The position numbers were made by a program, and so were the translations under genes. From Candidatus Bathyarchaeota archaeon (GTDB lineage: Archaea; Thermoproteota; Bathyarchaeia; Bathyarchaeales; Bathycorpusculaceae), in assembly GCA_963702095.1 (NCBI GenBank), contig OY969706.1:1760001-1824000 (forward strand): a stretch of 64,000 nucleotides of DNA, given 5' to 3'. Shown here piece by piece: positions 19,993-55,804 of this stretch (within the stretch, counting starts at the first letter, position 1; each line of letters starts with the position of its first letter). The notes under the pieces are model-generated. The model had not been told where the DNA came from. It worked only from the letters and a program-made list of their open reading frames with translations, and made no database searches.

Positions 19993-20154
19993 CCACATCC
20001 ACAGGGCGGCGACTCCAACATAGAGCCATGCAGGGCGTGTGGAGAAAAACCCATATCCCACACCGAAACAGACGCCAAAAAACGTTGCAACCGCAAAAAG
20101 CAACCGCCCTCTTTTGGCATCTTGTGGCACCCTGCAAACCCGCATAAAGAGAGA
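19993..20154 (+). repeat. Dispersed intergenic element family B, copy B1
   Basis: CCACATCCACA..GAGCCATG..GTGTGGAGAAAAA..CCACACCGAAACAG..GTTGCAACC..CATAAAGAGA shared with the copies at 42639 and 55638. Confidence 0.9.
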
Positions 20155-20291
20155 GACCTAATTTGCTTGCGAATCAAAGCTACAACATGCATCTAGAACC
20201 CCACTAACATTCCAATTCATCGCTTTGGCAGAATAGACACCTTGTTTATGCATCAATTTAATAAACAGAAAGTCCTAAACATAGATGAGCC

Positions 20292-21329
20292 ATGAACAGC
20301 CAAGACTACCAACCTAAACCATATACTTACACGCCCATTATTACAACCGTAGTTATGCCGCTTCTGATTTTTGGACGAGGCAAAAAGAAGGACGCAGCCC
20401 AAGCCCAAGCGCAGCAACCCGACGCTGAGCAGGCGCCCCCGCCGAAGCCTAAACCCAAAAAACACACAGGACTCACCGTACAAAAATACGAAATCACCGA
20501 AGACAAACTCGAATTTTCGGCGTTGAAAGGGCTTTTCAAAAAAAGCTGGGGTGTAATCAAAGAATTCCCCTTAAACGAAATCTCTGCGGTTGAGTTTGAG
20601 GGCAACTGGCTGAGCCTAACATGGAAAGATGAAAACCAACAGTTTATGCTAAAAAAGAAAACTGACTCCTTCGCCAAACTCAACGAGGAGCTACAGGCGA
20701 AAATCGAGGAGCAACACCAAAACCAACTCAAAGCTGAACGTGCTGCCCTGCAAAGGAGCGAGCTCTTAGCCGCTGTGAACACGTTTTTGCCGGCGGTGGA
20801 TGCTTCGTTTGATGTTTTGATGGGGTTGCATGAGAAAAGAGTAAACTGGACCCTGCTTGAAAGCTATGTCCAGCCTTTAGGTGGCACTTTGAGTTTCAAA
20901 GCGCAAACGCTCCTCCCGCTGGAGCTGGATTTCACAAAAGTAGCGGCTGCCATAAAAACCGAGGCACCCAACGTCGCCTCCAAAGAAGCATTCGCAGTGC
21001 TTAAGGCGATTCACAGCTATTTTATAGCGCAAAAACCCGAGGAGGATTCGGCGGATGCCGTAGCCAATTTTGAGCAGGTTAAAGAGTTGATTTTGGCTTA
21101 TTATACACTCAATGATTTGATGTTTGCGCAGGTCATTGAAGAAAAGGATAATGCAAAAGAATCAGCGGCGTTTGAGACTGTGTTAGCGGATTTGGCAGCT
21201 CAAACCAACTTTAAACTTGCCGCAGATGGGTTCAAGGAGAGTTTCGAGGCGTTGGGTGTTAATGAGGAGCGGGGCGAGGCTGTTTTGGATGCTCGGTTGC
21301 TGTTTAGGACCCAGTTGAAGCAGCTTTAG
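20292..21329 (+). CDS. Hypothetical protein (possible N-terminal PH-like domain, helical C-terminus)
   Basis: 345-aa ORF; true start may be ATG 20355. Confidence 0.7.
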   Translation: MNSQDYQPKPYTYTPIITTVVMPLLIFGRGKKKDAAQAQAQQPDAEQAPPPKPKPKKHTGLTVQKYEITEDKLEFSALKGLFKKSWGVIKEFPLNEISAVEFEGNWLSLTWKDENQQFMLKKKTDSFAKLNEELQAKIEEQHQNQLKAERAALQRSELLAAVNTFLPAVDASFDVLMGLHEKRVNWTLLESYVQPLGGTLSFKAQTLLPLELDFTKVAAAIKTEAPNVASKEAFAVLKAIHSYFIAQKPEEDSADAVANFEQVKELILAYYTLNDLMFAQVIEEKDNAKESAAFETVLADLAAQTNFKLAADGFKESFEALGVNEERGEAVLDARLLFRTQLKQL

Positions 21330-21441
21330 GCTTGTGGTTTTTGCTTTTGTGCGGTGAGGGCTTTTTTTGTTGTTTTCTGGGTAACCTTTAAGAGTATGCC
21401 GCGTGGCATATACTAGTTGTCCCCTAACAGGAGGACCAAAA

Positions 21442-22218
21442 ACGAAAAACAAAACAATCATAACAACCCTCATTCTAACAATCCTACCCCTCCTCCTAAT
21501 AACCACCCCCCAAACCGCATCTGCCACACCCTGGGATATTCAACTAACCGACGCCACTGGAGCAACAACCATAACCCTCACCTACGCCAACCTCACTGCC
21601 CTGCCCCAAACCACCGTCTTCGCAGACCTCCGATGCTACGGCTCTCCCGTAACCAGCGGAAACTGGGTCGGCGTCCAACTCTCACAAATCCTAAACCAAG
21701 TGGGATATGACTCCAATGTGGGTTCAGTTGATTTTAAAGCCCAAGATGGCTATAAAGTCAGTTTGTCACTCGACACTGCCCTGCTACCAGATGTGATTAT
21801 CGCTTACGAAAAAGACGGGGCGTTACTAGGCGAGACCTACCGATTGGTTGTTCCAATGGCAAACGGCAACGTCTGGATATCGATGATCACAAGCATTAGT
21901 TTAAGCAATACTGTAATAACGTCAAGTTTATCCTCAAACTCTATGCCTCCGACAGAGCCCTCATGGATAACGGGGCAAACCGATCAACCTACGCCGACAC
22001 CACAAGCCTCCACTCCCAGCCCCAGCGCCGCCCCCACAGAGACTCCCCAATCAACTCCTTTGCCCTCAAATGACGTTACTCAAACCCCACCGTCTCAGCC
22101 TAACGATCCAGCTACATTGAGTTTTCCCTATGCAACCGTCATTGCAGTAGTGTTGGTTTTTGTGTTTGCTGCAGCTGCGGGTTTTGTGGTTTATCATCGC
22201 AGAAGAAGCACCGCTTAA
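21442..22218 (+). CDS. Secreted, C-terminally anchored sulfite-oxidase-fold molybdopterin protein (apparent ACG start)
   Basis: LRCYG..WVGVQL..DGY..RLVVP..WI motifs, Pro/Thr linker, TM plus basic tail. AGGAGG lies 7 nt before ACG, giving signal peptide MKNKTIITTLIL. Confidence 0.8.
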   Translation, partial: TKNKTIITTLILTILPLLLITTPQTASATPWDIQLTDATGATTITLTYANLTALPQTTVFADLRCYGSPVTSGNWVGVQLSQILNQVGYDSNVGSVDFKAQDGYKVSLSLDTALLPDVIIAYEKDGALLGETYRLVVPMANGNVWISMITSISLSNTVITSSLSSNSMPPTEPSWITGQTDQPTPTPQASTPSPSAAPTETPQSTPLPSNDVTQTPPSQPNDPATLSFPYATVIAVVLVFVFAAAAGFVVYHRRRSTA

Positions 22219-22368
22219 TCACTTTCATTCCCCCTTTTCTGTTGTTTTTTTGTTGTACAGAATTTTCAATAAATATGTAAACGCTGTTGCTTTGATACTG
22301 CTTGGGGATTCGCTAACATTATATACATAACCGCCCAATTGGGTAGTCAGACAGTGGGGGATTAATAA

Positions 22369-22929
22369 ACGTCAAAGAATCCGCAACAAAAAGATGAAGC
22401 ACTGGAAGCCTTAGACTTCATCGTTAATGTTTTAAAAGAGCATGAACGGGACTTAGACAAGCTTATCAGCGAGTTAGCCACTGTTACTGAACAGATGGGT
22501 GACACCGGCGAGTTAACCGGCAAAGTGGAGAAGGTTGAAGAAAAAATCGGCAATCTCCAAAAAGAAGTTACGAATCTGGTCGGTTACATGTCAGGCATGC
22601 CTAAAGAAGCCGCAGCCATTGCAGTTAAAGAACAGTCAGCACAGGCTCAGGTAGCAACTGCACCTGCGGTTGCACATGGGGGACCATCGGTGGTTGTTAG
22701 GTGTCAGCAATGGCAGGACTTCCAATCTATGGCAATGGGGGCTCAGACAATTTCGTTTAGCTACAAAGAAGAAGAAAAGTTGTTCCAAGCAGACGCGCTT
22801 AGGGGCAACCAAATCATAACTTACAAGGGTCCCTTGCCCAACTTGACATTGGTTCTTAAAGCGTTTTTGTCTAAGGAACTCGGCGTTTCTGAACGCAGCA
22901 TTCTCGAAGGCGCCTTAGCCATCAGCTAA
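22369..22929 (+). CDS. Hypothetical coiled-coil protein, 186 aa (apparent ACG start)
   Basis: Frame is open 42 codons upstream of the track ATG (SKNPQQKDEALEALDFIVNVLKEHERDLDKLISEL) back to TAA TAA ACG; GTGGGGG upstream. Confidence 0.75.
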   Translation, partial: TSKNPQQKDEALEALDFIVNVLKEHERDLDKLISELATVTEQMGDTGELTGKVEKVEEKIGNLQKEVTNLVGYMSGMPKEAAAIAVKEQSAQAQVATAPAVAHGGPSVVVRCQQWQDFQSMAMGAQTISFSYKEEEKLFQADALRGNQIITYKGPLPNLTLVLKAFLSKELGVSERSILEGALAIS

Positions 22930-23019
22930 TCTTGTTGCTGAGGCTAAATCCACATTTTTAATATTGATTACGATTTCATAAGCCATATAACCCTTTTGCG
23001 ACATCTTTAGTATCAGTGA

Positions 23020-23152
23020 TTGGAGGGATTGGTTAAGGTTGAAGGCTAAGCCAATAGCCAACTCAAACCTTTTCCGTTTTCGAAGCCTTCTCCTTTCTCC
23101 TCGAACGACGGATGGCTAAGTGGCCCAACCAACACACTTAACCACCCTCCAA
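23020..23152 (+). ncRNA. Candidate structured small RNA
   Basis: TTGGAGGG(AT)TGGTTAAG pairs with CTTAACCACCCTCCAA; inner TCCGTTTTCGA/TCGAACGACGGA stem; TATAA at ~22986. Confidence 0.45.
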
Positions 23153-23192
23153 AACACCTACTTCCTTAATCAAGTTTTACTTAGATATCCCT

Positions 23193-23257
23193 TCTCTCTT
23201 TATGTGGGTGTGGCGGTTTATGGGGTGCCACAAGATGCCAAAAGAGGGCGGTTGCTT
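23193..23257 (-). repeat. Family B partial copy B4 (3' part)
   Basis: About 35 nt identical to B1 (AAGCAACCGCCCTCTTTTGGCATCTTGTGGCACCC), followed by AAACCGCCAC..CACATAAAGAGAGA. Confidence 0.85.
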
Positions 23258-23439
23258 CTTTAATTTCAATAACGGAGATTTTTGGACAAAATTGCCTATG
23301 CTTTTACTGTAGGTGCATGCCGATTTCCACCATGAGTTCTGGTGTCAGCATGCCCTGTGCGAGCATGATTCCGCCTGCCGAGTTGAGTACAATTGTTTTG
23401 TCTGGAAAAGGTTTATCTCATTGCATGTCGTTTTCTTGG

Positions 23440-23524
23440 GAACTGCAGGCGGATACACTCGTCCGCTGGGATGTGGTCCCCTCGGGGACTGAACCGCAAA
23501 CAAAACAGTCAAAAGTGAAAAGCA
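23440..23524 (+). promoter_or_regulatory. Structured 5' leader of rpl15e
   Basis: BRE/TATA-like GAAAAGGTTTATC at ~23405-23417, then hairpins GCGGA..TCCGC and GTCCCC-TC-GGGGAC. Confidence 0.5.
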
Positions 23525-24151
23525 ATGGCATACAAATACATGGCCGACGAATGGGCTCAGCCCGAAAAAAGCTTCGTCGAAGAACTTAATCGCCAACGCC
23601 TAGTGCAATGGCGTAAACAACCAAGCACCCTTAGAGTAGAAGGCCCAACCCGGCTTGACCGAGCGCGTAAACTGGGCTACAAAGCCAAACAGGGCTTCGT
23701 AGTTGCACGCACAAAGGTCCGCAGAGGCGGATTGCGTAAGCTCAGACCAAGATCCGGTAGACGCCCCAAACGTATGGGTGTTGCTAAATTCAAACCTGGA
23801 AAATCAATCCGCTTAATTGCGGAAGAACGAACCGCCAAACATTTCCCCAATCTAGAAGTCCTAAACAGTTACTGGGTCGGAGAAGACGGCAGACACAAGT
23901 GGTTCGAAGTTATCCTCGTTGACCCCAACGCGCCAACCATCAAAACAGACAAAGACATCGGTTGGATCACCGAGAAACAGCATACAAACCGCGTTTTCCG
24001 CAGCATGACCAGTGCGGGCAAAAACGTGCGTGGCTTACATCACCGCGGCGCAGGCGCAGAGAAAGCGCGTCCAAGTCACCGCAGAGGAGCCAAAAAACAC
24101 AGCGGCGTAAAACGTCAACGCAAAGGAGATGGACCATATGCACCAAGTTAA
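23525..24151 (+). CDS. rpl15e: 50S ribosomal protein L15e
   Basis: PTRLDRARKLGYKAKQG and LEVLNSYWVGEDGRHKWFEVILVD motifs. Confidence 0.97.
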   Translation: MAYKYMADEWAQPEKSFVEELNRQRLVQWRKQPSTLRVEGPTRLDRARKLGYKAKQGFVVARTKVRRGGLRKLRPRSGRRPKRMGVAKFKPGKSIRLIAEERTAKHFPNLEVLNSYWVGEDGRHKWFEVILVDPNAPTIKTDKDIGWITEKQHTNRVFRSMTSAGKNVRGLHHRGAGAEKARPSHRRGAKKHSGVKRQRKGDGPYAPS

Positions 24152-24338
24152 ACCCACCGTATATCGCCCGAGAGGTAAAGAGAAACGGGGCAAGGGTTTT
24201 AGCCCCAATGAACTCAAAGCAGCAGGCATAAGCAGACAACAAGCACGCCAAGCAGGATTGCCGGTTGATGTGCGCCGTAAAACCAGCCACGACGAAAACG
24301 TGGAAGCAATTAAAGCGCATACCAAACCAAAAGCCTAA
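24138..24338 (+). CDS. rpl13e: 50S ribosomal protein L13e (short archaeal form)
   Basis: RGKGFSPNELKAAG..GLPVDVRRKT..ENVE. Confidence 0.9.
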   Translation: MHQVKPTVYRPRGKEKRGKGFSPNELKAAGISRQQARQAGLPVDVRRKTSHDENVEAIKAHTKPKA

Positions 24339-24371
24339 AAACACTGGACGCATAAGACACAATCGACAACT

Positions 24372-24818
24372 ATGTCTTCCAACTTTCCAATAGGCTACAT
24401 CGATGTCCGCGTATTCGCTCATGCAACTGAGGATATGCAGAAGGTCGAGGCAGCCACCAAAAATCTTTTTCCTCTTTCTCTTTCAGAAACCCTGGTTTTC
24501 CAAAAAACCGCGTTATCGGGACACCATTCGAACCCTATCATTCTCCTCACAACCCAGTTAACTGACCGCAAACTTTTACTCTCTGCGTTACAGAAACTCG
24601 GCACAGACCTCTCCGTATTAGACAAGGAACAGCTTGACGCGGACATAAAATTGCATCTTGAAAAGGGTAACCTTTACCTGCGTTTCGATAAGCAAGCCGC
24701 CTATTTGGGCACAGTCAAACTCACACAGAACGACCCAATCCACGTCAAAATCCACTTCAAAAACAAAAACGCTCAGGAAATAGTTGATTTGGCTAAACAG
24801 TCTGGGTTACTGCCATGA
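24372..24818 (+). CDS. RNA-binding protein of the exosome/RNase P superoperon (COG1325-like)
   Basis: HATED, GHHSNPI and LYLRFDKQAAY motifs. Confidence 0.88.
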   Translation: MSSNFPIGYIDVRVFAHATEDMQKVEAATKNLFPLSLSETLVFQKTALSGHHSNPIILLTTQLTDRKLLLSALQKLGTDLSVLDKEQLDADIKLHLEKGNLYLRFDKQAAYLGTVKLTQNDPIHVKIHFKNKNAQEIVDLAKQSGLLP

Positions 24819-25549
24819 AACGCGTCTTTGCAGACCTTCACCTTAAATTTAACCCCAAGGATACAGCGGCAACACAGCAAGCCATCGAGAAGGCAGCACG
24901 GTTCGGATACGAACGGGTTGGTTTTGCGTTTTCTTTTGGGCTGCAAGACGCTGAAGTAGCGGCGCTCAAAGCTGCCTGCGCCAATTTGGGGCTTGACTTG
25001 GTTTTGCGTGCGGATTTTAAGCCTCGCAATCAAGAAGACCTCATGCGTTTCTTGCGCAAATACCGGCGCAAACTCGAAGTCATCTGTATCCTCTGCGACG
25101 ACAAAGAAATCAGCCGCCAAGCCGCCAAAGACCGCCGCGTTGACCTACTCGACTTCACCTCATTGGATTATCATAAACGCTTCTTTGACCGCGCGGAAGC
25201 CGAACTTGCCAGTTGCAGCCAAACCGCTTTGGAAATTGATGTTAAACCGCTTCTTGTCCTTGAAGGTCCAAGCCGCGTCCGTCTGCTCACAAGTCTGCGC
25301 CGTGAGGTTACATTGGCTAAAGAGTTTCATGTGCCCATTGTCCTATCCAGCGGCGTCGCTGAGAACCGCTTAATGCGTATGCCTCATGACTTGGCAAGTT
25401 TGGGGTTACTTTTGGGTTTGAACGAGGCTGAAACGTTGGATGCAGTTTCAACTAATCCCTCGTCGATGGTTATGCGTAACCGCCTAAAATTAGGCTCAGC
25501 TTTTGTTGCCCCGGGCATTACTGTAATCAAGGAGGGCAAGGCACAGTGA
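24815..25549 (+). CDS. rnp3: RNase P protein Rpp30
   Basis: ADLH, RVDLL and PIVLSSG motifs; operon context. Confidence 0.88.
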   Translation: MKRVFADLHLKFNPKDTAATQQAIEKAARFGYERVGFAFSFGLQDAEVAALKAACANLGLDLVLRADFKPRNQEDLMRFLRKYRRKLEVICILCDDKEISRQAAKDRRVDLLDFTSLDYHKRFFDRAEAELASCSQTALEIDVKPLLVLEGPSRVRLLTSLRREVTLAKEFHVPIVLSSGVAENRLMRMPHDLASLGLLLGLNEAETLDAVSTNPSSMVMRNRLKLGSAFVAPGITVIKEGKAQ

Positions 25550-25857
25550 AGCGTGTTAAGAGGCGTTATTTGGCGGTGCAGCTGGAACGTGACCGTTTGC
25601 CAAGCGAACGGGAGTTGATGGATGCCATCTGGGGTTCTCTTTCACGGTTGTTTGGTGAGGTGGGGGCAAGTCAGGCGAGTTTGGCGTTGATTAGTTTTGA
25701 TGTTGAACGTAAGGTTGCTGTGGTGCGGACTTCGCTTGTGTGTTTGCCGTCTTTTAGGGCGTCTTTGGCTGCGGTTACGTCTGTTGGTGGGGTGGAGGCT
25801 TCGCTGCATGTTTTGGCTGTTTCGGGAACGTTGAAGGCTCTGTTTTCAAATTTCTAA
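25546..25857 (+). CDS. rnp2: RNase P protein Pop5/Rpp14
   Basis: KRRYL, LFGEVG and VSGTLKAL motifs. Confidence 0.9.
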   Translation: MKRVKRRYLAVQLERDRLPSERELMDAIWGSLSRLFGEVGASQASLALISFDVERKVAVVRTSLVCLPSFRASLAAVTSVGGVEASLHVLAVSGTLKALFSNF

Positions 25858-26028
25858 TGTAAAGTTTTTCTTTACTTTGTGACAAAACAAACGGGAGTTA
25901 AGTCAGTGTATTATTGGACAAACTATTAGAAGTTATGCAGAAATATTTATCAACCCGTAGATAAGCGTTAATTAACGTTACAAATATGCGTTGGGAGAAA
26001 CGCAAAACCAGACCGAGAAGAGCGTAAA

Positions 26029-27261
26029 ATGGACATAAAAGATTACTTCTTCAAAATGCCCTCCCTAAAAACGGAGCCAATAATAGACGACACCACCCTC
26101 CGAGACGGCATCCAAATGCCCGGCCTAGCCGCAAGCTCAAAAGACGCCCAAAAAATCGCCCAGCTACTCTGCGACATAGGCGTAGAACGCATCGAAATGT
26201 TCCACTATCAAGAACCAGACAAACGAGCCGCCAAACTCATCTTAAACAACAAACTAGACATGCGCATCGCCGGATGGTGCCGAGCCGTCAAAGAAGACAT
26301 CGACAGCGCCGTAGCATGCGGGTTCAAAGAAGTCGGCATCTCACACCCAGTTTCATTCATCCATTTCAAGGCTAAATGGCCTGAAAAAACAAACGAGCAA
26401 ATCCTCGTCAACGTCGTCGAAGTCACAGAGTACGCAGCTAAAAACTGCGGCTTACGCACATTTGTGCACGGCGAAGACAGCACACGCGCCGACTGGGAGT
26501 TCGAACGCAAATTCATCAACGCCATCGCAGACGCAGGCGCAGAATGCTACCGAATATGCGACACCGTCGGCATCGGTTTACCAGACATAAATGCGCCACT
26601 GCCCAACGGCATCCCCGCCAAAGTCTTGGCAATCAAAAAAGAAACCAAAATCCCCTCCATCGAAATCCACGCGCATGACGACTTCGGCAACGCAGTCGGC
26701 AACACCATGGCGGCGATACAGGCAGCTGACGGCTTATACGACAAAGTCTACGCCAGCACAACACTTTTAGGCATCGGTGAACGCGCAGGCAACGCGGAGA
26801 CAGAAAAAATCATGCTCAACCTGTATTTGCAGCGGGGCGTCAAAAAGTTTGAGGGCAAAACCGAAAAACTCAAAGCCACCGCAGACTTCATTGGCAAAGC
26901 CACCGGTTTCGTGGTGCCGCCTAACAAAGCCATCGTCGGCGACTACGGGTTTGCGCATGAAAGCGGCATTCACACCCACGGCGTCCTAAACGACCCCTGG
27001 ACCTACGAACCCTACCCGCCTGAACTGGTCGGCAACACACGGCGCCTAACCGTTGGCAAACAATCGGGCAAAGGCATCATTAAACATAAAATCAAAGAAC
27101 TCAGCGGCAACGTACCAGACGACGCCACGGTCGCCACTGTTTTGGAAACTGTTAAAGACATCTATGCAGGCGGACGCAGAGCATCGCTTAAAGAGGACGA
27201 ATTCAGGAAAATCCTGCGTATACTAAAAATATTGCCTGAAAACGCCAACGGACACTGCTAA
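26029..27261 (+). CDS. DRE-TIM acyltransferase (homocitrate/isopropylmalate synthase family, Re-citrate-synthase-like)
   Basis: DTTLRDG, HAHDDFG, GIGERAGNA and HESGIH motifs; no LeuA regulatory domain. Confidence 0.85.
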   Translation: MDIKDYFFKMPSLKTEPIIDDTTLRDGIQMPGLAASSKDAQKIAQLLCDIGVERIEMFHYQEPDKRAAKLILNNKLDMRIAGWCRAVKEDIDSAVACGFKEVGISHPVSFIHFKAKWPEKTNEQILVNVVEVTEYAAKNCGLRTFVHGEDSTRADWEFERKFINAIADAGAECYRICDTVGIGLPDINAPLPNGIPAKVLAIKKETKIPSIEIHAHDDFGNAVGNTMAAIQAADGLYDKVYASTTLLGIGERAGNAETEKIMLNLYLQRGVKKFEGKTEKLKATADFIGKATGFVVPPNKAIVGDYGFAHESGIHTHGVLNDPWTYEPYPPELVGNTRRLTVGKQSGKGIIKHKIKELSGNVPDDATVATVLETVKDIYAGGRRASLKEDEFRKILRILKILPENANGHC

Positions 27262-27366
27262 AACCAATCTTGTGCCCCGTCGCTACTCTTTTTCCTTATT
27301 AGAAGGAAATTTTTTTTCTCTAAGTTCGAAGGCTTTTCTTTTTACTTCTTAGCAGCTTGGGGGGCT

Positions 27367-27660
27367 CTAAACGCTTCGTGGGTTCCAAATACATTTTATC
27401 GCTTTTGAGTCGCAGGCTAAGACGCAGGGGGTTTGGTTGGTTTCGGGTTTGCATGCTTGGCAGGTGTAGCATATTTTTTTGCGGTGTTCCTCTTTGATGG
27501 CTGCGACGGTTTTGTCTTCTAAATCGATGAATTCGGTTTGAAGGTCGAAGGCATTTTGGGGGCATTCCTCAACGCATTTACCGCAGCCGCTGCAGCGGTC
27601 AGAGTCGACTACGATGTAGTATTCGCCTGAACCGTCACAGTAGCCATAATGCGTGATCAT
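27367..27660 (-). CDS. Ferredoxin, BzdM-like
   Basis: HYGYCDGSGEYYI N-terminus, CSGCGKCVEECP, and a second CxxC..CxxxC. Confidence 0.85.
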   Translation of the reverse strand: MITHYGYCDGSGEYYIVVDSDRCSGCGKCVEECPQNAFDLQTEFIDLEDKTVAAIKEEHRKKICYTCQACKPETNQTPCVLACDSKAIKCIWNPRSV

Positions 27661-27668
27661 GCCTTTCG

Positions 27669-28562
27669 CTATCCTTTCTGGGCTTTCTCGTAGAGTGCTT
27701 TACCGAATGCTGCTGCGCCCAGTGCGCCGGCAACCATGGGGTCTAAGCCGCCTTCACGCCATCTCGGCGAGGGCAGGGTTTTGACGCCTAGGATTACTTC
27801 GATGCGGCTGACGATGCCGATGTTTTTGGATTGCCCGCCAGTGATAACCAATTCTTTTTCGAGTCCGACGCGGTTTATGAGGTTAGCCATGCGTACCGCC
27901 ATAGCCCGTGTGTAGGCGGCGAGGACTTTCTCTTTTGTCCAGCCCTTACGCAAGAGTCCCATGGCTTCGGTTTTGGCGAAAGCGACGCAGGTGCAGCTGA
28001 CTGGGTCAGGTTCTTTCTCGACTTTAAGCGAGATATCGCCGATGTCCTCAATTGGAATTTGGAGTAAGTCGGCGAAGACTTCCATGCCTCTGCCTGTGCC
28101 AGCGGCGCATTTGTCGTTCATAAGGAAACTGACGACTCTGCCTGTTTCATCGATTTTTATGGCTTTAATGTCTTGTCCCCCTACGTCGAGGACTGTGCGG
28201 ACGCTGGGTCCCCATATGTAGTTGGCACCTTTTGCGTGGCAGGCGATTTCGGTGATGGCTTTGTTCGCCATAGGCACATTTACGCGTCCGTAGCCTGTGC
28301 CAACGATGAATTTGAGGTCGCTTACTTTGAGTCCTGTGTCCTGCAATGCGAAGCTGAGTGCTTTGTTAGCGCTTTCAGGGCTGTTGCTGCCTGTGCGGGT
28401 GATGCCCCAAGCGTAGGCTTGCCCGTTGACCATGATGGCTGCTTTGGAACCCACGGAGCCCACGTCAACGCCTGCAGTGATGAGGTCTTTGCCAGTCGGT
28501 TTGATGTTGGGCATTACTCGGTGGTACTCATTCCAACGCCAAAACTCATTTCCGTTGCTCAT
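27669..28562 (-). CDS. ATP-dependent activase subunit, BzdQ-like
   Basis: EFWRW N-terminus; GVDVGS, TGYGR, DVGGQD and MNDKCAAGTG motifs. Confidence 0.85.
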   Translation of the reverse strand: MSNGNEFWRWNEYHRVMPNIKPTGKDLITAGVDVGSVGSKAAIMVNGQAYAWGITRTGSNSPESANKALSFALQDTGLKVSDLKFIVGTGYGRVNVPMANKAITEIACHAKGANYIWGPSVRTVLDVGGQDIKAIKIDETGRVVSFLMNDKCAAGTGRGMEVFADLLQIPIEDIGDISLKVEKEPDPVSCTCVAFAKTEAMGLLRKGWTKEKVLAAYTRAMAVRMANLINRVGLEKELVITGGQSKNIGIVSRIEVILGVKTLPSPRWREGGLDPMVAGALGAAAFGKALYEKAQKG

Positions 28563-29345: not shown

Positions 29346-29359
29346 TACTTCATTTCACC

Positions 29360-42610: not shown

Positions 42611-42638
42611 AGTGAAACATAAACAAACCAACATACTT

Positions 42639-42807
42639 CCACACCCACATAGCGGCTGGTTCTGCATGGAGCCATGTTGCGCGTGTGGAGAAAAATGCAC
42701 TTTCCACACCGAAACAGGCATAGAAAAACGTTGCAACCGCAAAAAGCAATTGAGTTCTCAACCATTCTTGTGGCATGCCGTAAACCGCCACCCCACATAA
42801 AGAGAGA
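42639..42807 (+). repeat. Dispersed element family B, copy B2
   Basis: Same conserved blocks as B1 and B3. Confidence 0.9.
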
Positions 42808-42878
42808 ACACCAACAAAACATTTGACCTACAGCTAAATAATGGATGGGCGATGCTAAGAGAGCAGCAAACGCTTCTT

Positions 42879-48069: not shown

Positions 48070-48309
48070 ATGCAGACAACTGACCACAACATTGTTAAAG
48101 TAACCAGACGCGGCCAAACAACAATACCCCAAAATCTGCGCAAACGATTCAACATCAAAGAAGGGGACCGCCTAATCGTAGAAGCCACAGAAAACGGCAT
48201 ACTATTCAAACCTGTCCCCAACATCTTGGATATGGTAGGCATCGATGCAGGATACGCAACAGTTGAGCAAGTTAACAAAATGATCGATAAACTCCGAGAA
48301 GAATACTAA
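48070..48309 (+). CDS. vapB: AbrB/MazE-type antitoxin
   Basis: KVTRRGQTTIPQNLRKRFNIKEGD; directly upstream of a PIN gene. Confidence 0.88.
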   Translation: MQTTDHNIVKVTRRGQTTIPQNLRKRFNIKEGDRLIVEATENGILFKPVPNILDMVGIDAGYATVEQVNKMIDKLREEY

Positions 48310-48310
48310 C

Positions 48311-48709
48311 TTGAAAGAAGTCCTCGACACCCGCTTTTTGAGGGAATACTTGTACTCTAACCAAGACACGCCAAAACAGAAACTGGCAAGGAAACTCGAT
48401 GCACTTATAGCCACAAACGAGGGCATACTGCCAACAATAGTCCTGGCCGAAATAACCCAAATCACCTGTGCACTGCGGGGTAAAGATATGGCACATAGCC
48501 GCTGCCAAGCCCTAATCCAAAGCGGACTCCAAATCCAAGAATTAACACCTCAAATCGCCGAGCAAGCCGGATTATTCAAATGCCAATACAGCAACCTGCC
48601 AATGGGCGACTGCATAATCGCAGCAACAGCGCTGATAACTCACGCGAGGGTGCTCTCTGACGACCCCCATTTTGACGCCATCAAAGAAATAAAACGCATC
48701 TGGATATAG
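48311..48709 (+). CDS. vapC: PIN-domain toxin
   Basis: Acidic residues in VLDT, LAE, GDC and SDDPHF. Confidence 0.88.
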   Translation: MKEVLDTRFLREYLYSNQDTPKQKLARKLDALIATNEGILPTIVLAEITQITCALRGKDMAHSRCQALIQSGLQIQELTPQIAEQAGLFKCQYSNLPMGDCIIAATALITHARVLSDDPHFDAIKEIKRIWI

Positions 48710-48715
48710 CACCCT

Positions 48716-48955
48716 TTATCTGCCCTGTTCGGCTTGAACTGCACTCTGCCTAAGTTCCTCAGTCGCGTAAAGCTCCACTTTGCAGCAGTTGGGACACACA
48801 AACACGTACATGGGAATCATGGATTCTCCGAGTTCGCCCCACTCGCCGATTAACAGGTTGATTCCGCCGCTGGTGCCGCCGACACGGAAGGGGGCAGTGT
48901 AGAGGTACTGTGCGTTTTGACCGCAGAAGGTACATTTCCTTGTATTTCCACTCAA
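48716..48955 (-). CDS. Small Zn-ribbon protein
   Basis: CTFCG..FRVGG..CPNCCKVELY. Confidence 0.75.
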   Translation of the reverse strand: MSGNTRKCTFCGQNAQYLYTAPFRVGGTSGGINLLIGEWGELGESMIPMYVFVCPNCCKVELYATEELRQSAVQAEQGR

Positions 48956-49039
48956 GTGATTCAGCCTCTAACCCATTAGGCGATCACAAACTAAAGCATT
49001 TACTCAAGAGGAGGGTAAGTGCCACCATAGAAAAGTGGC

Positions 49040-50587
49040 TTAACTTGTTTTTTTGTGCTTCCTAAATAAAAATAAACAAAGAGTTATGACAATTATCGCT
49101 GCTACAACAGTTGCAGTAACAAGTGACAAGGTTGAGACTGTTCCTGCAAAGATTGATTCTACTGTAAAGTTGATTGTAGAACTACCTGTATTATAATAAG
49201 TATCGCTTGAGTAGACTGTCAGATTATGTGCTCCTGTTGATAAGTTGCTAAGAGTGATATTCCCGTTTATAGTGATGTTGTTTTGTCCATCCAAACTATA
49301 GCCAGTCCACACTGTTTGCTTGTTAACTACAAAATCCAATGTAATTGCTCCCGTGGGATATGTGGATTGAGGATTAATCAGTTGTATGGCTGAAGCCTGC
49401 GCCCAATCGGGTATTAAATTAGGCGCATTCGAGATGTTGAACAGTGTCATCAATGGGTAGCGGTCCGAGCGGTTTGCGTCAATAACGTAGGGAGTATCGC
49501 CAATGCCGTCACCGTTTGAATCTGTACCATGGTAGTCACTCCAATAGTTTCCTCCTTTCTCGTTATCAAAGTAATCCGACTTAGCGGAAAACAGCGTGTT
49601 AACTTGATAAGTATTATCAACAAAATTGTTATCGTATAGCAGACTACCGCTTAAAGTGCCATCACCGTTAGGGCCTATAGTAATACCGTCTTTGCCAATT
49701 GCACCAGTGTCTAACCCCCATGCGTTATTAGTTATTTGGTTTGCGTAAAGAGTGTTATTTGCACCTGGGAGAAGTCCTTCGCCACAATCAGTGATCGTGT
49801 TTTTTAGGATGGTGTTGTTCGACCCGCTTGCGGACAATCCGTATGCAAAGTGGTCGATGGTGTTGTCATCCACTATGTTGCTATTGCCGCTTAGAATAAA
49901 GAATGATCCGCTTGCTCCAGTGATTGTGTTGTGTGCTAAATAACTTAAAGCGGTGCTGACGTAAACCCCTGATCCAGATATGGCGTTGTTTGTAATTATA
50001 TTGTATTGACCATCGAAGCTTATGCCGTTATAGTTAACACTGTTCTGGAAGGTGTTTCCTCTAATCGTTGAATAACTTGCGTTTACGCTTGAGTCTTTGC
50101 AGAAGAAGTTCCGTTCAATATCCAAGTAATCTCCGAATGCAGCAAAAACTGGTGTAATTGAGCTGTCCGTGATTTGCGTCTTGTCGCCTGTAACTACGAT
50201 GTTTCCGCCATTAGAGGTTACTGTTAATTTAGACAGCGAAAAGTCGTTGGCGGTTATGTTAATGGCAGGGTCATAAAAAGGGGTCTTATGCCCCAAAATA
50301 TCTAGTATTATCTCAAAACTGTGGGATTTTAGGTTGATTATGGTGTTTTGTGAGCCTTCACCTACAATTGTGAGGCTCTTGGCTGTGTAGATGGCGCTGT
50401 CTTCATAGGTTCCGCTTTTGATCAGTATTGTGTCGCCATCTGCTGCATTACCGACAGCAGAAGTTAGGGTTGGGTAGTCATCGGGGACAATGATTGTTTC
50501 TGGTTGTGCTTTTACGGTTGCTAATGGAAGGATAACTATTGAACCCACAAACAGGAGAATAAACAGTACGGCTAATTTCTTTCCCAT
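49040..50587 (-). CDS. Secreted NosD/CASH beta-helix protein
   Basis: IIVPDDYPT and GNYWSDYHGTDSNGDGIGDTPY motifs; C-terminal TM. Confidence 0.88.
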   Translation of the reverse strand: MGKKLAVLFILLFVGSIVILPLATVKAQPETIIVPDDYPTLTSAVGNAADGDTILIKSGTYEDSAIYTAKSLTIVGEGSQNTIINLKSHSFEIILDILGHKTPFYDPAINITANDFSLSKLTVTSNGGNIVVTGDKTQITDSSITPVFAAFGDYLDIERNFFCKDSSVNASYSTIRGNTFQNSVNYNGISFDGQYNIITNNAISGSGVYVSTALSYLAHNTITGASGSFFILSGNSNIVDDNTIDHFAYGLSASGSNNTILKNTITDCGEGLLPGANNTLYANQITNNAWGLDTGAIGKDGITIGPNGDGTLSGSLLYDNNFVDNTYQVNTLFSAKSDYFDNEKGGNYWSDYHGTDSNGDGIGDTPYVIDANRSDRYPLMTLFNISNAPNLIPDWAQASAIQLINPQSTYPTGAITLDFVVNKQTVWTGYSLDGQNNITINGNITLSNLSTGAHNLTVYSSDTYYNTGSSTINFTVESIFAGTVSTLSLVTATVVAAIIVITLCLFLFRKHKKTS

Positions 50588-50683
50588 ACTTGACCAAGTT
50601 CAAAGGTGATAGACTTTTCAATAAAAACTTATTCGTCAAGGTTCCTTGACTAAACTTGGCTAAGTTTAGACCAAAAAACTGTT

Positions 50684-50761
50684 TGGTGGACGAGGCGGGA
50701 TTTGAACCCGCGGCCTCTGCAATGCCAATGCAGCGTTCATACCAAGCTGGACTACTCGCCC
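50684..50761 (-). tRNA. tRNA-Ala(GGC), CCA encoded
   Basis: Acceptor stem GGGCGAG/CTCGTCC with G3:U70; anticodon arm CTGCA-TTGGCAT-TGCAG; T-arm GCGGG-TTCAAAT-CCCGC. Confidence 0.95.
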
Positions 50762-50963
50762 ACTTTTTTGCCTGGCTTCTGAGATTTACTCCATCTCGTT
50801 TAATAAGCATTTCTTTATGCAGCGGCTGAAGCATCCACAGAAGCCACGAATGTGCTTCAAAACTGTCGGTTGAGCATTGAAAACTTGGTTTTTTGACGGT
50901 GACACTAAAATAGGATGTTTCCCCATGAAATAGTATCTTCGTTTATTCCGTTTTATAGGTAAA

Positions 50964-51479
50964 TTGGGAGATGATTTGTTGAGAGTAGAAATCGTTCGTG
51001 CTGTAACCAAACCAATCTGCTCCTTTAGGGAGCATTTCAAGAATTTCGAGGACATTGATGCCGTGCAAAAAATATTCGGCGGCAAAACACAACATGTAAT
51101 CGAGAACTTGGAAGTTGAATTCACCGATAACACACTCTACATGAGCGTCGACTACGACGGACGCTTACAAGTCAACCCCAACTACTTAGCAACCGGCAAC
51201 TTCGCCGACTTATACCTTGACATCATCCATGAACTTGTCCATGTACGGCAGGTGCTAAACGGCAAGAACTGCAACCATGCATTGCCCTATGTGGAGCGTC
51301 CCCTCGAAATTGAGGCTTACCGAACTGCAGTTGACGAAGCCAGAGCGTTAGGGTGGGATGAGAGCCGAATACTATGCTACTTGGATTCTGATTTGATTAA
51401 CGCTGAAGAATTCCGCAAGCTGGCGGCGGCGTTGGAACTCACCGTGGAAGAGGAGCCGCTAAGAGAAGAGAACGATTAA
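50964..51479 (+). CDS. Hypothetical zincin-like protein
   Basis: IHELVHVRQ (HExxH) and downstream EIEAY. Confidence 0.7.
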   Translation: MGDDLLRVEIVRAVTKPICSFREHFKNFEDIDAVQKIFGGKTQHVIENLEVEFTDNTLYMSVDYDGRLQVNPNYLATGNFADLYLDIIHELVHVRQVLNGKNCNHALPYVERPLEIEAYRTAVDEARALGWDESRILCYLDSDLINAEEFRKLAAALELTVEEEPLREEND

Positions 51480-51501
51480 TGCTTAAGCTGGTCAGCGTCG
51501 G

Positions 51502-51632
51502 CGTTGCTTGCGGAATCCGCCTCAACCAGCCTGCAACCCAAACCAGACGCAGATGCCAAAACAGGCGCCACAGCCAAACCCACTGGAAGATGATGAGTAA
51601 GGGCGACTCCCTCTTCTTCTTAAACTATAAAA
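51502..51632 (+). repeat. Dispersed element family A, copy A4
   Basis: Near-identical to A3. Confidence 0.92.
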
Positions 51633-51909
51633 TTGTCTCCAAAGGCTCAAAAGGCCAGAGGCAACCCTAAAATCCTGCCTTGGGAGCGCAGAAAACCAGG
51701 ATGTTCTAAGCCAACCAACACCGTAAATGGCATCCCCAGAAAATGGAGACGCAGTCTGCATGTACGAAAGGTTCTTAAGGTATATGGTATTCTTCTACAC
51801 GGCAAGAAATCGGCATATCACTGCCAATTCAGGTAACAACCAGCTTCAATTTTGGAGCAGGTTAGACCAACATAAAAGAATAAATAGTCCGATGAAGAGG
51901 TGAAAAGGT

Positions 51910-52230
51910 ATGGAAAACATTTACGCAGCAATGCTCCTTCACAAGGCAAGTAAAGAAATCAACGAAGAATCCGTAACCAAAGTCCTAAACGCAGCAGGAA
52001 TCACAGTGGACGCAGTTCAAATCAAAGCACTCGTAGCTTCACTAAGCGAAGTAAACATCGATGAAGCAATCAAAGCAGCCCCAACCATGATGGCAGCAGC
52101 ACCAGTTGCAGCACCAGCAGGCGGCGAAGCAAAACCAGCAGCTCCAGTAGAAGACAAGAAGAAGAAAGCTGAAGAGGAAAAAGCCAAAGAAGAAGCAGCA
52201 TTAGAAGGATTAGGCGCCCTATTCGGGTAA
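51910..52230 (+). CDS. rpl12p: Ribosomal stalk protein L12 (aP1)
   Basis: YAAMLLH, Ala-rich hinge and GLGALFG terminus. Confidence 0.96.
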   Translation: MENIYAAMLLHKASKEINEESVTKVLNAAGITVDAVQIKALVASLSEVNIDEAIKAAPTMMAAAPVAAPAGGEAKPAAPVEDKKKKAEEEKAKEEAALEGLGALFG

Positions 52231-52357
52231 ACAAGCCTCACATTTCTTATTTTTAACCATTTTTCCCCAAATTATTTATTCTACTTCTGACTAGCCTTGA
52301 TTTTACCTGAAAATTCTTTGATATTTAGTAAGAGATTGCCGAGGGAAATTCTATTCG

Positions 52358-53503
52358 CTATAATGGAGTTGCCGTTGGCTGAGCAGCCTGCTCTGCAGTT
52401 GTTGCTGGAGCAGGCGGTTTAATCTTGTTTCTTGTGCTAAAGATTTTCCACGCAGCCACAGGCAACCAACCGGTGATGATGCAGACAGTCGCGGGGAAGC
52501 CTTTGATGCCAAAGTAACCGGTTATTTCAGGTAGAAAAGCTTCCCATATACCAAAGGACAATGCAATTGCGGCAGCCGCTATTAAACCGGCGCGTACATC
52601 AAATTTCTTGTAAGTTTGTGTAACCAAGATTCCCGCAAAGAAGAAATCACCTAATCCCAGACCGCGAAGCCCAATTTCACCCGCCTGAGTCAAAACCAAA
52701 GGCAGGTTAGGCAAATAAACCAGTACCGGAAGACCTAGACCGGTGAAGGTTTGGGCTGCAGCCACCATTGGTCCAGTGAAAACTAAGATTACGTCGATTA
52801 TTGGCAGGACGGCGGCGAAGATCCAGGTTGTCTTCCAACTGAACAGGGATGAGAGGTAGAGGATGATGAGGATGGCGAAGGTGAAGGCGAAGACATCCAT
52901 TAATATGGGGAACCAAACGTTGAAGGCGCCATTGTATATTGCTGCGAAAAAGAGAAACAGGAGCACGAACAGGGCTGGCGGCTGAGCAGCGAGGTACCAT
53001 CTCGGCTTTGTGATGCTGTATTTCTGTTCAAACGCCACTGCGGCAAAGCAGAGGCCTGAGAGGACAAAAAACGCTATTGCCCTATAGATTGTGTATTCGT
53101 CGGTGAATGGCGCGGCAAAGCTGGAGAACCCTGCGATTAATGCGCTGACGCCGAAGGCGGTGGAGATGATTTGTGCACGTACCCTAGTCAGGTTGGTGAA
53201 GACATAGGAGAATGTGAAGAGCAGCATGGTGTAGGATGCTAGGAATAAGAGCAGTAGAAGGTTTGGCACTAAGCCGCTTGGGTTAACGGTGGATGTATAG
53301 CCGATAACTACAACCATAATTACGATGAAAGCCGCAAGTGCAAGTATATCGCGTGTCTTGAACTCTTTCTGTTCAACCGTTGCCACCAACTTTTTTTCAA
53401 CACGCATGTTGAGGAACATAGCTACCGTTATCACTATGAAGAGCGCTATGGGCATGGCAAGGTCAAGAGTCGGCATAGGCTTCACAATAACCAAAAGAAA
53501 CAT
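52358..53503 (-). CDS. Presenilin/signal-peptide-peptidase-like GxGD intramembrane protease
   Basis: LGLGDFF motif, upstream Asp (IIDV), FPAT at the PAL position. Confidence 0.75.
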   Translation of the reverse strand: MFLLVIVKPMPTLDLAMPIALFIVITVAMFLNMRVEKKLVATVEQKEFKTRDILALAAFIVIMVVVIGYTSTVNPSGLVPNLLLLLFLASYTMLLFTFSYVFTNLTRVRAQIISTAFGVSALIAGFSSFAAPFTDEYTIYRAIAFFVLSGLCFAAVAFEQKYSITKPRWYLAAQPPALFVLLFLFFAAIYNGAFNVWFPILMDVFAFTFAILIILYLSSLFSWKTTWIFAAVLPIIDVILVFTGPMVAAAQTFTGLGLPVLVYLPNLPLVLTQAGEIGLRGLGLGDFFFAGILVTQTYKKFDVRAGLIAAAAIALSFGIWEAFLPEITGYFGIKGFPATVCIITGWLPVAAWKIFSTRNKIKPPAPATTAEQAAQPTATPL

Positions 53504-53544
53504 TTATTCCTTTAGCCAAAATCCCCAAAACTTAAGCAGAAGGC

Positions 53545-54414
53545 TCAATAGGGGAAATAAACGTTAAAAATGGCTAAAGTAGCCAAAAGCGCCTCTTCAG
53601 TGCGAACGGTAACTGTACCCTGATTGGGAACCGTGTTCACCATAAAATCTGATAGCTCAGACAAATTTAGAGATTCATCTTCGACAATCTCATGGAGTCC
53701 ACGTGAGGGTGCGCCAAAAGCTACCAAAACATGGTTGCTGCCAAGCCATCTCTGGCTGATTTTGTCTAAAACATCGGTAAAGTTGTCGCCGACTCTGGCA
53801 GTAGCAATTTTCAAATCAAAAGCAGAATCCTTCAAAAGCTGCCCAGCGGAGCGTTTTTCAACGTGCACGGTGTAGCCCCAGTACAGCGGCACCTCGTCGC
53901 GGCTAACAGTTTGCACCTCCACATGGTCGCCTATGTTAACCACCTGCACAGTTAACCGCTCGCCGACACGATACTGTGTTTGCCTTAGAAGCGCAGACTG
54001 CTGAACGCCAATGTCTACCAGTAAACCTTCTTTGCCCCCAGACTGCACTAAGCCTTCGCGGTACTCGCCGATTTTAAGATGCTTGGTTTTGCCGCTCAAC
54101 GGGTGATGGGGCGTGCGTAGCGGCGGCAGAATCCCCGCGTATTGCAGGTCAGGCTCCAGTTTGAAGAGTGTTTTTCGGAGGTACTGGGGTGTTTCTATGT
54201 AGTTTAGGAGTAGGGCGATGAGGTCGAGGTCTTGGCGTTGATTGATTTTGGCGTTGTCTGGGTAAACTATGATTTGGTTTACACGGAAAATCGCTGCGGA
54301 CCGGGCGATTAAGCCGATTTTGGCGGTTTTTTCCCGCAGGTGAGGCGTGTCAGAGATAACTGAGGCTGGAATGGCGATTGAGAGCTTAACTTTATTCATG
54401 CTAACTCTATCCAT
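53545..54414 (-). CDS. SPOUT RNA methyltransferase (DUF171/MTH1 family)
   Basis: ETPQYLRK, GILPPLRTPHH and PNQGTVTVRTEEA motifs. Confidence 0.9.
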   Translation of the reverse strand: MDRVSMNKVKLSIAIPASVISDTPHLREKTAKIGLIARSAAIFRVNQIIVYPDNAKINQRQDLDLIALLLNYIETPQYLRKTLFKLEPDLQYAGILPPLRTPHHPLSGKTKHLKIGEYREGLVQSGGKEGLLVDIGVQQSALLRQTQYRVGERLTVQVVNIGDHVEVQTVSRDEVPLYWGYTVHVEKRSAGQLLKDSAFDLKIATARVGDNFTDVLDKISQRWLGSNHVLVAFGAPSRGLHEIVEDESLNLSELSDFMVNTVPNQGTVTVRTEEALLATLAIFNVYFPY

Positions 54415-54489
54415 GCGCTTTTTTGTCTGCGTTGAGCTTAAAAGGCGGGATTGAGATATAAAACTGCGGGTTGTTTGGAGGACACAGAG

Positions 54490-55590
54490 TTGGTTAAACC
54501 CATTTTAGATGATATGGAAAAGATTCTTGCAGTAGATAAAAGCGGAACCATAAACTACTATGTTGATTCGCCCAAGCATTACAGAACGGCACTGGAAATT
54601 GCAAAGGACATCACGGTTAACTATCCCAAACCAGGCAACATCGTCGTGGCTGGTATGGGCGGCTCAGCCATCGGCGGCGACCTACTCAAAGACTGGACAA
54701 AAGACAAACTGCGTGTCCCCATAGAAGTCAACCGAGAATACCAACTACCCCAATACGCCGGCGAAAAAACCCTCGTGGTAGCTTCAAGTTACTCCGGCGA
54801 CACCGAAGAAACCCTCAGTGCCTTCCTAGACGCCCTCAAACGGGGGTGCATGGTGTTCTGCATAACCAGCGGCGGCGCACTACTGGAAGCCGCTAAAAAA
54901 CACAAGGTGCCGCATCTGCAGGTTCCCGGCGGTATGCCTCCACGGGCAGCGTTACCCTACATGTTTGTTCCTACACTTGTCCTCTTGGAGAAGCTTGGTT
55001 TGGTTGAAGGCGTCGAAGACGAGGTAAAAGAAGCTTATTTGCTGCTTGAGAAAATCGTCGAGGAGAATGGACCCCAAAAGCCGGCGGTCGAGAACTTTGC
55101 CAAGAACACCGCATACCACATCGGTGATTCTGCGCCGGCGGTGTATGGTTTTGGCGTTTACCGCAGTGTGGCACAGAGGTTTAAGCAGCAGTTTAATGAG
55201 AACAGTAAATCCGCCGCTAAATGGGAAGTTTTCCCCGAACTTGACCACAACGAAATCGTGGGCTGGTCAGGTAGAGGCGAGCAATGCCGCTTTTTCTCGG
55301 TAATCTTCATCCGCGATAGTGCTGAGCCGGTTGAAATCGAGGCGCGGATTGAAACCACTAAGAGCATTATGGAGCGGGTGGGCTTAATCACGTTTGAACT
55401 TGACACACAGGGCACAAGCCTGCTGGCGAAGATTATATCCACTATAGTTGTAGGTGACTTCCTCAGCGTGTATTTGGCTGTGATGCGTGGAGTCGACCCC
55501 ACACCTGTCCCAACCATAGACTACCTTAAAAACTCGTTAAAAGAGAATGGGTTTAGGGAGAAAGTTGTGGCTGAGCTAGAAAAAGCCTAA
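54490..55590 (+). CDS. Bifunctional phosphoglucose/phosphomannose isomerase
   Basis: GMGGSAIGG, SYSGDTEET, PRAA, NENSK and PELDHNE motifs. Confidence 0.93.
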   Translation: MVKPILDDMEKILAVDKSGTINYYVDSPKHYRTALEIAKDITVNYPKPGNIVVAGMGGSAIGGDLLKDWTKDKLRVPIEVNREYQLPQYAGEKTLVVASSYSGDTEETLSAFLDALKRGCMVFCITSGGALLEAAKKHKVPHLQVPGGMPPRAALPYMFVPTLVLLEKLGLVEGVEDEVKEAYLLLEKIVEENGPQKPAVENFAKNTAYHIGDSAPAVYGFGVYRSVAQRFKQQFNENSKSAAKWEVFPELDHNEIVGWSGRGEQCRFFSVIFIRDSAEPVEIEARIETTKSIMERVGLITFELDTQGTSLLAKIISTIVVGDFLSVYLAVMRGVDPTPVPTIDYLKNSLKENGFREKVVAELEKA

Positions 55591-55637
55591 CAGCCTCTTT
55601 TTCTGAAGTGAACAACTTTTTGTTATTTGCCTTTTTT

Positions 55638-55804
55638 TCTCTTTATGTGAGGTGGCGTTTTGTGGGGTGCTCCAGGACTGTAACTGGTGGCGGCTGCTTT
55701 TTTGGGTTGCAACTGTTTTTGGCGTCTGTTTCGGTGTGGGATATCCGATTTTTTCCACATGCCATACATGGCTCCATGTTGGATTGGCCATGGTGTGGAT
55801 GTGG
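55638..55804 (-). repeat. Dispersed element family B, copy B3
   Basis: Reverse complement aligns with B1 and B2. Confidence 0.9.

Follow-up and report, generated by a model that had tools for sequence, protein, structure and literature searches.

A dispersed intergenic repeat family of conserved blocks and fixed-length spacers in one genus of Bathyarchaeia

Background

Sulfolobus provides archaeal examples of MITEs (miniature inverted-repeat transposable elements), and bacteria carry bacterial interspersed mosaic elements (BIMEs), while the bridge RNA of the insertion sequence (IS) family IS110 and the omega RNA of TnpB/IscB offer the features with which a guide-type RNA can be compared. For Bathyarchaeia, which are abundant and uncultured, metagenomes are the main source of genomes. 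The MITEs of prokaryotes, archaea included, are among the subjects of two reviews (PMC10969869, PMC11602168), and populations of repetitive extragenic palindromic (REP) sequences and of the REP doublets forming hairpins (REPINs), together with REP-associated tyrosine transposases (RAYTs), are treated in PMC3116915, PMC3337134 and 10.1101/2022.05.22.493013. Here we describe family B, a repeat of about 180-195 bp with copies in a stretch of 64,000 nucleotides of a Candidatus Bathyarchaeota archaeon genome (GCA_963702095.1). This stretch, referred to below as the window, is G000:C1:1760001-1824000, where G000 denotes the genome and C1 its single contig of 2,937,366 bp. A literature search found no paper describing such elements in Bathyarchaeia.

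An earlier, sequence-only reading of the window had noted four copies and had offered two explanations for them, a structured multicopy RNA resembling guide RNAs or a non-autonomous mobile element. With modest confidence, we regard family B as a non-coding, non-autonomous interspersed DNA element that is specific to one genus of Bathyarchaeia. The second of the two earlier explanations fits the copy number, the intergenic dispersal on both strands, the patchy distribution within the genus, an insertion relative to related genomes, and pairs of copies whose identity stops at the element edges.

Results

A family of about one hundred copies confined to one genus

A profile was built with nhmmer from 76 long genome copies, and a match was called full length when it ran from model position 10 or below to position 174 or above. 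This profile matched the 2.94-Mb genome at 114 places, comprising 94 full-length copies and 20 fragments, 14 of which retain the 3′ end and 6 the 5′ end. BLAST of the whole genome with the three full-length window copies also gave 114 merged places, 53 on the + strand and 61 on the − strand, and the density is about one copy per 26 kb. All four copies reported for the window (B1 to B4, Table 1) are real, each lying within 8 nt of the position first given for it, and the family count is far past chance; the profile search found no copy in the 64-kb window beyond these four. For the genomic context, open reading frames (ORFs) of at least 120 aa were called crudely with greedy removal of overlaps, producing 2435 ORFs with 79% coverage. 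By these calls the 94 full-length copies are intergenic, with 27 between convergent ORFs, 15 between divergent ORFs, and 52 in tandem contexts.

Family B matched in 8 of 41 genomes, all of a single genus: besides G000 itself these are 7 of the 24 other genus members, and none of the 16 genomes drawn from the order's other genera matched. First-look candidate counts were 115 in G000, 82 in G007, the nearest species, whose flanks are 84-90% identical to those of G000, and 43 in G005. G043 and G046 hold several copies each, and the remaining matching genomes have 1-5, mostly fragments. An 18-nt core of the 3′-terminal block, which has 47 matches in G000, also recovers copies in other Bathyarchaeia assemblies. 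This motif was found in at least 88 stretches of a species-representative collection, and the element was present at 65 of the 80 loci among the matches listed; the record titles of the element-bearing loci beyond G000 read Bathyarchaeia/Bathyarchaeota or uncultured archaeon. The other 15 loci, which include nine bacterial or other records, are consistent with chance occurrences of an 18-mer. A viral origin was considered and dropped, the sole IMG/VR match to the 18-mer not being a family B element, and a metagenome-contig search with the ORF adjoining B1 returned no strain-level relatives.

Conserved blocks, fixed-length spacers, and flanking modules

In the alignment of all 94 full-length copies, conserved blocks alternate with near-random runs of 6-17 nt whose length is constant, so that the alternation first described from the window holds for the family. 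The blocks are a doubled CCACA near the 5′ end, CATGGAGCCATG, GTGTGGAGAAAA, CCACACCGAAACAG, AAAAGCAA, TCTTGTGGC, and, at the 3′ end, GCCACACCCACATAAAGAGA. The doubled CCACA motif of the 5′ end recurs at the 3′ end, and the main periods of column variability are ~20-25 nt. Overall, the element contains CCACA five times, TGTGG twice, two small palindromes, and A-tracts; the palindromes CATG-GAGC-CATG and GTTGCAAC and the GTGGC/GCCAC repeat are present as the sequence-only reading wrote them. The + strand is composed of 35% A, 31% C, 18% G, and 16% T, and each copy has on average 2.13 runs of five or more T (T5+ tracts) on the − strand, where 92 of the 94 copies have at least one, versus 0.02 on the + strand. 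In the family consensus, neither end is an inverted copy of the other; by eye, ~13 copies have a T-run at the 5′ end that is a weak mirror image of the A-rich 3′ end.

Two further modules adjoin the element. Upstream module U (~70-120 nt) has 45 profile matches in G000, of which 38 lie directly 5′ of family B copies and a few are solitary; U is thus carried by 38 of the 114 family B matches, for example those at 2724222 and 363666, and by none in the window. The 66 copies that lack U show other 5′ variants, and in 19 of these 66 a T5+ run lies no more than 30 nt upstream. Downstream, a small module named D has 13 matches, 7 of them right after a family B copy. At G000:C1:1511585-1511662 (−), a solo remnant consists of module U followed by the first ~18 nt of the element fused to the last ~18 nt, which looks like the product of a deletion between the doubled CCACA motifs of the two ends. 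The possibility that the doubled CCACA at both ends is a target-site duplication was rejected, as the 5′ and 3′ variants are uncorrelated by eye.

Copying as a unit, insertion, and rearrangement

Five pairs of copies in G000 share 96% identity or more. For two of these, the identity extends from −13/−15 to +180/181, that is, to the edges of the element, and the flanks are unrelated; of the others, two include module U and one is a mosaic. Exact shared runs of at least 50 nt occur in 16 of 4371 pairs of copies versus 0 after column permutation, and the distance in one variable segment does not correlate with that in another (r 0 to 0.21).

Comparison with relatives shows additional DNA at sites of family B. 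The spacer between the phosphoglucose isomerase and inositol-phosphate synthase genes, where B3 lies, is 430 nt long in G000 versus 8-17 nt in the majority of relatives in which these genes are still neighbours. A 785-nt insertion in G000 (C1:2723727-2724510), with AAGAAA on both sides, is absent from an otherwise collinear G007 locus and is itself a mosaic of four families: a ~115-nt repeat (~25 matches), module U, a family B copy, and a ~60-nt repeat (~45 matches). For many copies in G007, one flank is the same as that of a G000 copy and the other maps elsewhere, synteny between the two genomes often stops at a family B copy, and many G007 contigs end at copies. In one case, a 3.3-kb segment between inverted copies at G000 1,628,926 and 1,632,373 is inverted in G007; these copies (G000:C1:1628926-1632524) are near-identical and each carries module U.

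Several features of these regions were noted in passing. The 3.3-kb inverted segment holds ORFs of 340 and 570 aa, which by eye resemble an AAA ATPase and a VWA-domain protein. A 1.65-kb stretch at G000:C1:1326601-1328249, missing from the collinear G007 locus, contains a family B copy preceded by a 359-aa ORF that by eye is similar to a phage tail-sheath protein. At G000:C1:2279000-2307000, and also near 1864849 and 2906000, paralogous genes for PQQ-type beta-propeller surface proteins are each followed by the ~115-nt repeat, and one pair of 2.9-kb segments is 98.8% identical.

No conserved RNA structure

The sequence-only reading had described covarying stems and had likened family B to a guide RNA. 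We consider it improbable that the copies form a family of small non-coding RNAs, whether as a scaffold with guide-like loops or as an unstructured, C/A-rich RNA bound by protein. The conserved scaffold with variable segments of fixed length would suit such an RNA, as would the modestly negative folding z-scores, which in 47 of the 94 copies averaged −1.17 on the + strand (13 of 47 below −2) and −0.90 on the − strand, with values of −1.81 (+) and −3.13 (−) for B2 alone. The pairing proposed earlier is also possible in most copies (87% of cells paired), but it stems from invariant repeated motifs. When every run of at least 4 column pairs able to pair in at least 75% of copies was enumerated, all of the resulting helices derived from the CCACA motif (repeated five times), the TGTGG motif (twice), or the CATG palindrome, with 0-3 compensatory changes and 0-23 broken pairs per position. 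The candidate helices of the earlier reading are likewise near-invariant CCACA/TGTGG motifs in which compensatory changes are essentially nil, and the covarying stems were therefore not borne out. At the Y-R pair singled out as compensatory (columns 25-64), UG is the commonest combination, in 32 of the 94 copies; 38 copies have a change on one side only, none has changes on both, and in 14 the pair is broken. The pattern seen in three copies had looked compensatory because two freely toggling transition sites produce it.

The same result was obtained across species, using an alignment of 60 copies from G000 and other Bathyarchaeia assemblies that included a divergent subfamily. In this alignment, the whole proposed structure was paired in 87.2% of cells versus 86.4% after shuffling (the observed level being reached in 13 of 500 shuffles), the pairs changing on both sides numbered 4 versus 4.4 in shuffles (430 of 500 as high), and the covariation score, 0.116, was at the same level as the 0.120 of a control slid by −3 columns. 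The top column pairs in an all-against-all mutual information analysis were neighbours and not Watson-Crick partners. RNAalifold predicted 0 pairs on the + strand (60 sequences) and 13 on the − strand (45 sequences; −3.66 kcal/mol), none of them compensatory, so that covariation and a consensus fold are absent on both strands. At gathering level, a window-wide Rfam search had no match in any of the copies, and over B2 there were only chance-level matches at E up to 10.

Other expectations of a guide or a transcript fared similarly. Whether the variable loops match flanking sequence had been raised as a check. For five variable segments, the longest words shared with the flanks of the same copy are no longer than those shared with flanks elsewhere in the family, in direct or reverse-complement orientation. 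There is no promoter-like box at a fixed place, the TTTATG of the 3′ end is TTTGTG in the divergent subfamily (both judged by eye), orientation relative to adjoining genes is random, and TnpB, IS110, Y1, and reverse transcriptase (RT) genes were not detected in G000. A structured multicopy RNA with a guide-like scaffold is thus unsupported, there being no covariation, no consensus fold, no flank matches, and no IS110, TnpB, or RT gene in the genome; attractive as a new guide-RNA scaffold would be, this reading can be set aside on present evidence. A resemblance to an H/ACA-like pocket (lower stem, internal loop, capped upper stem, AGA), considered with no specific test, was also dropped because the stems never covary, the upper stem has 4 bp, and there are ~100 copies, to our knowledge far more than in known guide sets.

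No conserved reading frame

Family B is also non-coding. The best of the six frames is open in 39 of the 94 copies, no reading frame is conserved, and the column variability has no period-3 signal (rank 72 of 90). In the consensus of U plus the element, a single frame of ~83 codons can be followed by eye from an ATG in U to a TAA in the 3′ block. It begins with a hydrophobic stretch, again by eye, and no window copy has U. That the copies are relics of a small-protein gene family encoded by this frame is highly improbable. The terminal TAA is indeed present in 77 of the 94 copies, but the frame is open in only 29 of them, in-frame stops recur at three positions (28, 15, and 37 copies), the variable runs are contiguous stretches of 6-17 nt, and the ATG-bearing module U accompanies just 38 of 114 matches. 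Together with the missing period-3 signal, this leaves the small-protein relic close to refuted.

Histories at single loci and the case for retention by the host

From G007, 23 copies were fetched with their flanks, and 12 could be paired by flank to a full-length copy in G000. At the place of B3, G007 holds a copy too. At that of B1, the G007 copy shares the rare CCCGCA variant and has its own internal deletion, and at that of B2, G007 keeps only ~25 nt of the 3′ end, where the profile finds no match. At one locus, a positional partner is also present in G014. Positional partners differ at 65 of 833 conserved columns (7.8%, a figure for block divergence that is biased downward because the G007 copies were chosen as good matches), at 285 of 830 intermediate columns (34%), and at 426 of 735 variable columns (58%). 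Between the two genomes, the flanking genes diverge by 8.7%, 5.3%, and 26.4% at the first, second, and third codon positions, respectively, and their divergence at fourfold sites is 32.1%. The blocks are therefore preserved, and turnover has been faster in the spacers than at silent sites. This suggests that the blocks are under selection, that copies are replaced or converted by other copies, or both. When the similarity of each positional partner was ranked among the 94 copies, the ranks were 1, 2, 6, 10, 12, 21, 24, 35, 53, 58, 75, and 84.

These differences bear on an alternative that we hold to be possible, if unlikely, namely that family B is a REP/BIME-like DNA element retained by the host, with blocks that bind a putative host protein, or − strand T-tracts that stop transcription, and copies that are kept by selection. 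The low divergence of conserved columns relative to intermediate, variable, and fourfold sites would be in keeping with this, as would spacer lengths retained despite nearly randomised spacer sequence and the strong bias of T5+ tracts to the − strand. The 3′ end of the element also lies within 70 nt of a convergent ORF stop in 33 of the 94 copies, compared with 11 of 94 for the 5′ end. Against retention by the host stand the ascertainment bias just mentioned and the signs of decay elsewhere, including the deletion in the B1 partner, the ~25-nt remnant at the B2 place, solo remnants, and the 20 fragments. Variable columns diverge more than fourfold sites, and this excess, taken with partner ranks that spread from 1 to 84 of 94, points to turnover or conversion and not to quiet conservation. 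There is, moreover, no orientation bias in tandem contexts, where 23 copies are co-oriented and 29 anti-oriented. Finally, the spacers ahead of the element have their own T5+ tract in 11 of 33 cases, equal to the genome-wide rate (785 of 2435), and nothing therefore suggests that the element replaces terminators; this idea was rejected.

Copies in the window and their surroundings

The coordinates of the window copies, of the blocks of B2, and of two Rfam matches are collected in Table 1.

Table 1. Family B copies, blocks of copy B2, and other features of the window (window coordinates; genes adjoining the copies were named by Pfam)
Feature	Position	Strand	Description	Surroundings
B1	19986-20155	+	Model positions 2-179, E 7.9e-42; full length except for 8 nt deleted internally	Divergent spacer, flanked by an ABC-transporter ATPase gene, 18908-19663 (−), and by an ORF without Pfam match, 20292-21329 (+)
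B4	23192-23262	−	Model positions 109-179, E 5.5e-16; fragment with the 3′ end	Upstream of the eL15 leader and gene
eL15 ribosomal-protein leader	23449-23500	+	RF03144, 46.1 bits, above gathering score	Just upstream of the L15e gene
B2	42631-42809	+	Model positions 1-180, E 1.6e-47; full length	Convergent spacer, 21 nt past a PQQ-type beta-propeller gene (ends 42610) and 70 nt past an HdrA/MvhD-like gene (−, ends 42879)
B2 5′ block	42639-42649	+	Doubled CCACA near the 5′ end; high information content in 94 copies	
B2 palindrome blocks	42665-42688	+	Palindrome CATGGAGCCATG, then GTGTGG; stem positions near-invariant, no compensatory change	
B2 3′-terminal block	42787-42807	+	GCCAC..CCACATAAAGAGAGA; most conserved block of the family	
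tRNA	50687-50761	−	Rfam match above gathering score	
B3	55634-55811	−	Model positions 2-180, E 1.1e-41; full length, 5′ end of the T-run variant	Convergent spacer, with a phosphoglucose-isomerase-like gene ending at 55590 on one side and a myo-inositol-1-phosphate synthase gene (−) ending at 56021 on the other

Discussion

Given these results, our preferred reading is that family B is a non-autonomous DNA element whose copies would have arisen by mobility. The element may have colonised intergenic DNA in ancestors of a few species and would now be mostly inherited in place, slowly decaying and at times copied or converted as a discrete unit, while also acting as a substrate for rearrangements. 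Its short blocks, recurring every ~20-25 bp with free spacers of fixed length between them, may be sites read at the sequence level by a putative protein, and the block-and-spacer layout fits protein-read sequence sites and not base-paired RNA stems.

Several observations weigh against mobility as the source of the copies. The three full-length window copies and 12 further positional pairs predate the split between G000 and G007, and current activity must therefore be low. The recent near-identical pairs could be products of gene conversion. Conserved columns that diverge by 7.8% next to 32% at fourfold sites are not obviously expected of a purely selfish, decaying element. No clean single-copy empty site was found, the G007 loci that were compared being filled, rearranged, or composite, and neither terminal inverted repeats nor target-site duplications are visible by eye at the edges of the near-identical pairs. 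No autonomous element with family B ends was found, nor was a 5′-only/3′-only pair around a gene or a high-copy long repeat.

The search for an enzyme also speaks on this side. G000 has no match to PF07282 (TnpB), PF01548 (IS110; control genomes do match), PF01797 (Y1/TnpA/RAYT), PF00078 (RT), or PF01609 (IS4/5 DDE), and PF00239 (serine recombinase) is absent from G000, G005, G007, G014, and G046; the transposase and RT search of G000 covered these six families plus rve. Two rve-like ORFs of ~380 aa, at G000:C1:1963138-1963353 (−) and 1162128-1162340 (−), scored 30.5 and 30.3 bits, below the cut-off of 32.6; both are far from any copy, and the rve family does not track the element across the genus. 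Such rve-like ORFs are scattered through the genus, with up to 7 in G053. The earlier observation that no recombinase or nuclease gene is adjacent extends to the whole family, as IS110, TnpB, TnpA, serine-recombinase, RT, and IS4/5 genes stand beside no copy. The absence of partner genes is not proof, however, because G000 is estimated to be 90% complete, and we infer a candidate protein partner that our searches did not find.

A more speculative reading, which we judge unlikely, is that each genome maintains ~100 platforms, each consisting of ~8 blocks spaced about two helical turns apart and read by a putative multimeric, sequence-specific protein of Bathyarchaeia. If so, this protein could be a new kind of transposase or recombinase, or else a chromosome-organising or termination factor. 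A new transposase or recombinase would explain how the element is copied at unit length without inverted ends or duplications, and it would account for the inversion and the synteny breaks as well.

Whichever reading applies, the family has practical consequences, since a 180-nt repeat breaks short-read assemblies, drives inversions, and inflates intergenic spacers, and knowing it should aid both assembly and comparative work. Blocks and spacing that are kept across species, with neither inverted ends nor target duplications and with no transposase of the common classes detected, leave a mobilising enzyme of a new kind or a use by the host.

The likeness of family B to the bridge RNA of IS110 and the omega RNA of TnpB/IscB is superficial, being limited to a scaffold with variable segments of fixed length. 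In contrast to the bridge RNA, family B has no PF01548 recombinase gene in its genome, no fold supported by covariation, and no flank match beyond the control. As for the omega RNA, the families searched were PF07282 and PF01797, and neither has a match in G000. Both kinds of RNA occur as one per element, whereas family B has ~100 free-standing copies.

The resemblance to MITEs is closer, as family B is short, non-coding, non-autonomous, high in copy number, mainly intergenic, abundant in a lineage-specific manner, and linked to rearrangements, but unlike them it has neither terminal inverted repeats nor a target-site duplication, and its genome yielded no parent IS or transposase from among the families searched. 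With REPINs and BIMEs it shares an extragenic location, persistence, long-term inheritance in place, a frequent position near gene 3′ ends, and occurrence in mosaics, here with modules U and D and repeat families X and Z. It departs from REPINs in its length of ~180 nt, in not being a palindromic hairpin pair (its only palindromes are invariant and of 4-6 bp), and in its archaeal host, and from the REPIN-RAYT system in that no Y1/RAYT gene (PF01797) was detected in G000, at its estimated 90% completeness. Since the ends, duplications, and partner enzyme that define MITEs and REPINs were not found, we file family B under neither; the most economical account is an old, non-autonomous interspersed DNA element restricted to this genus and MITE- or REPIN-like in behaviour.

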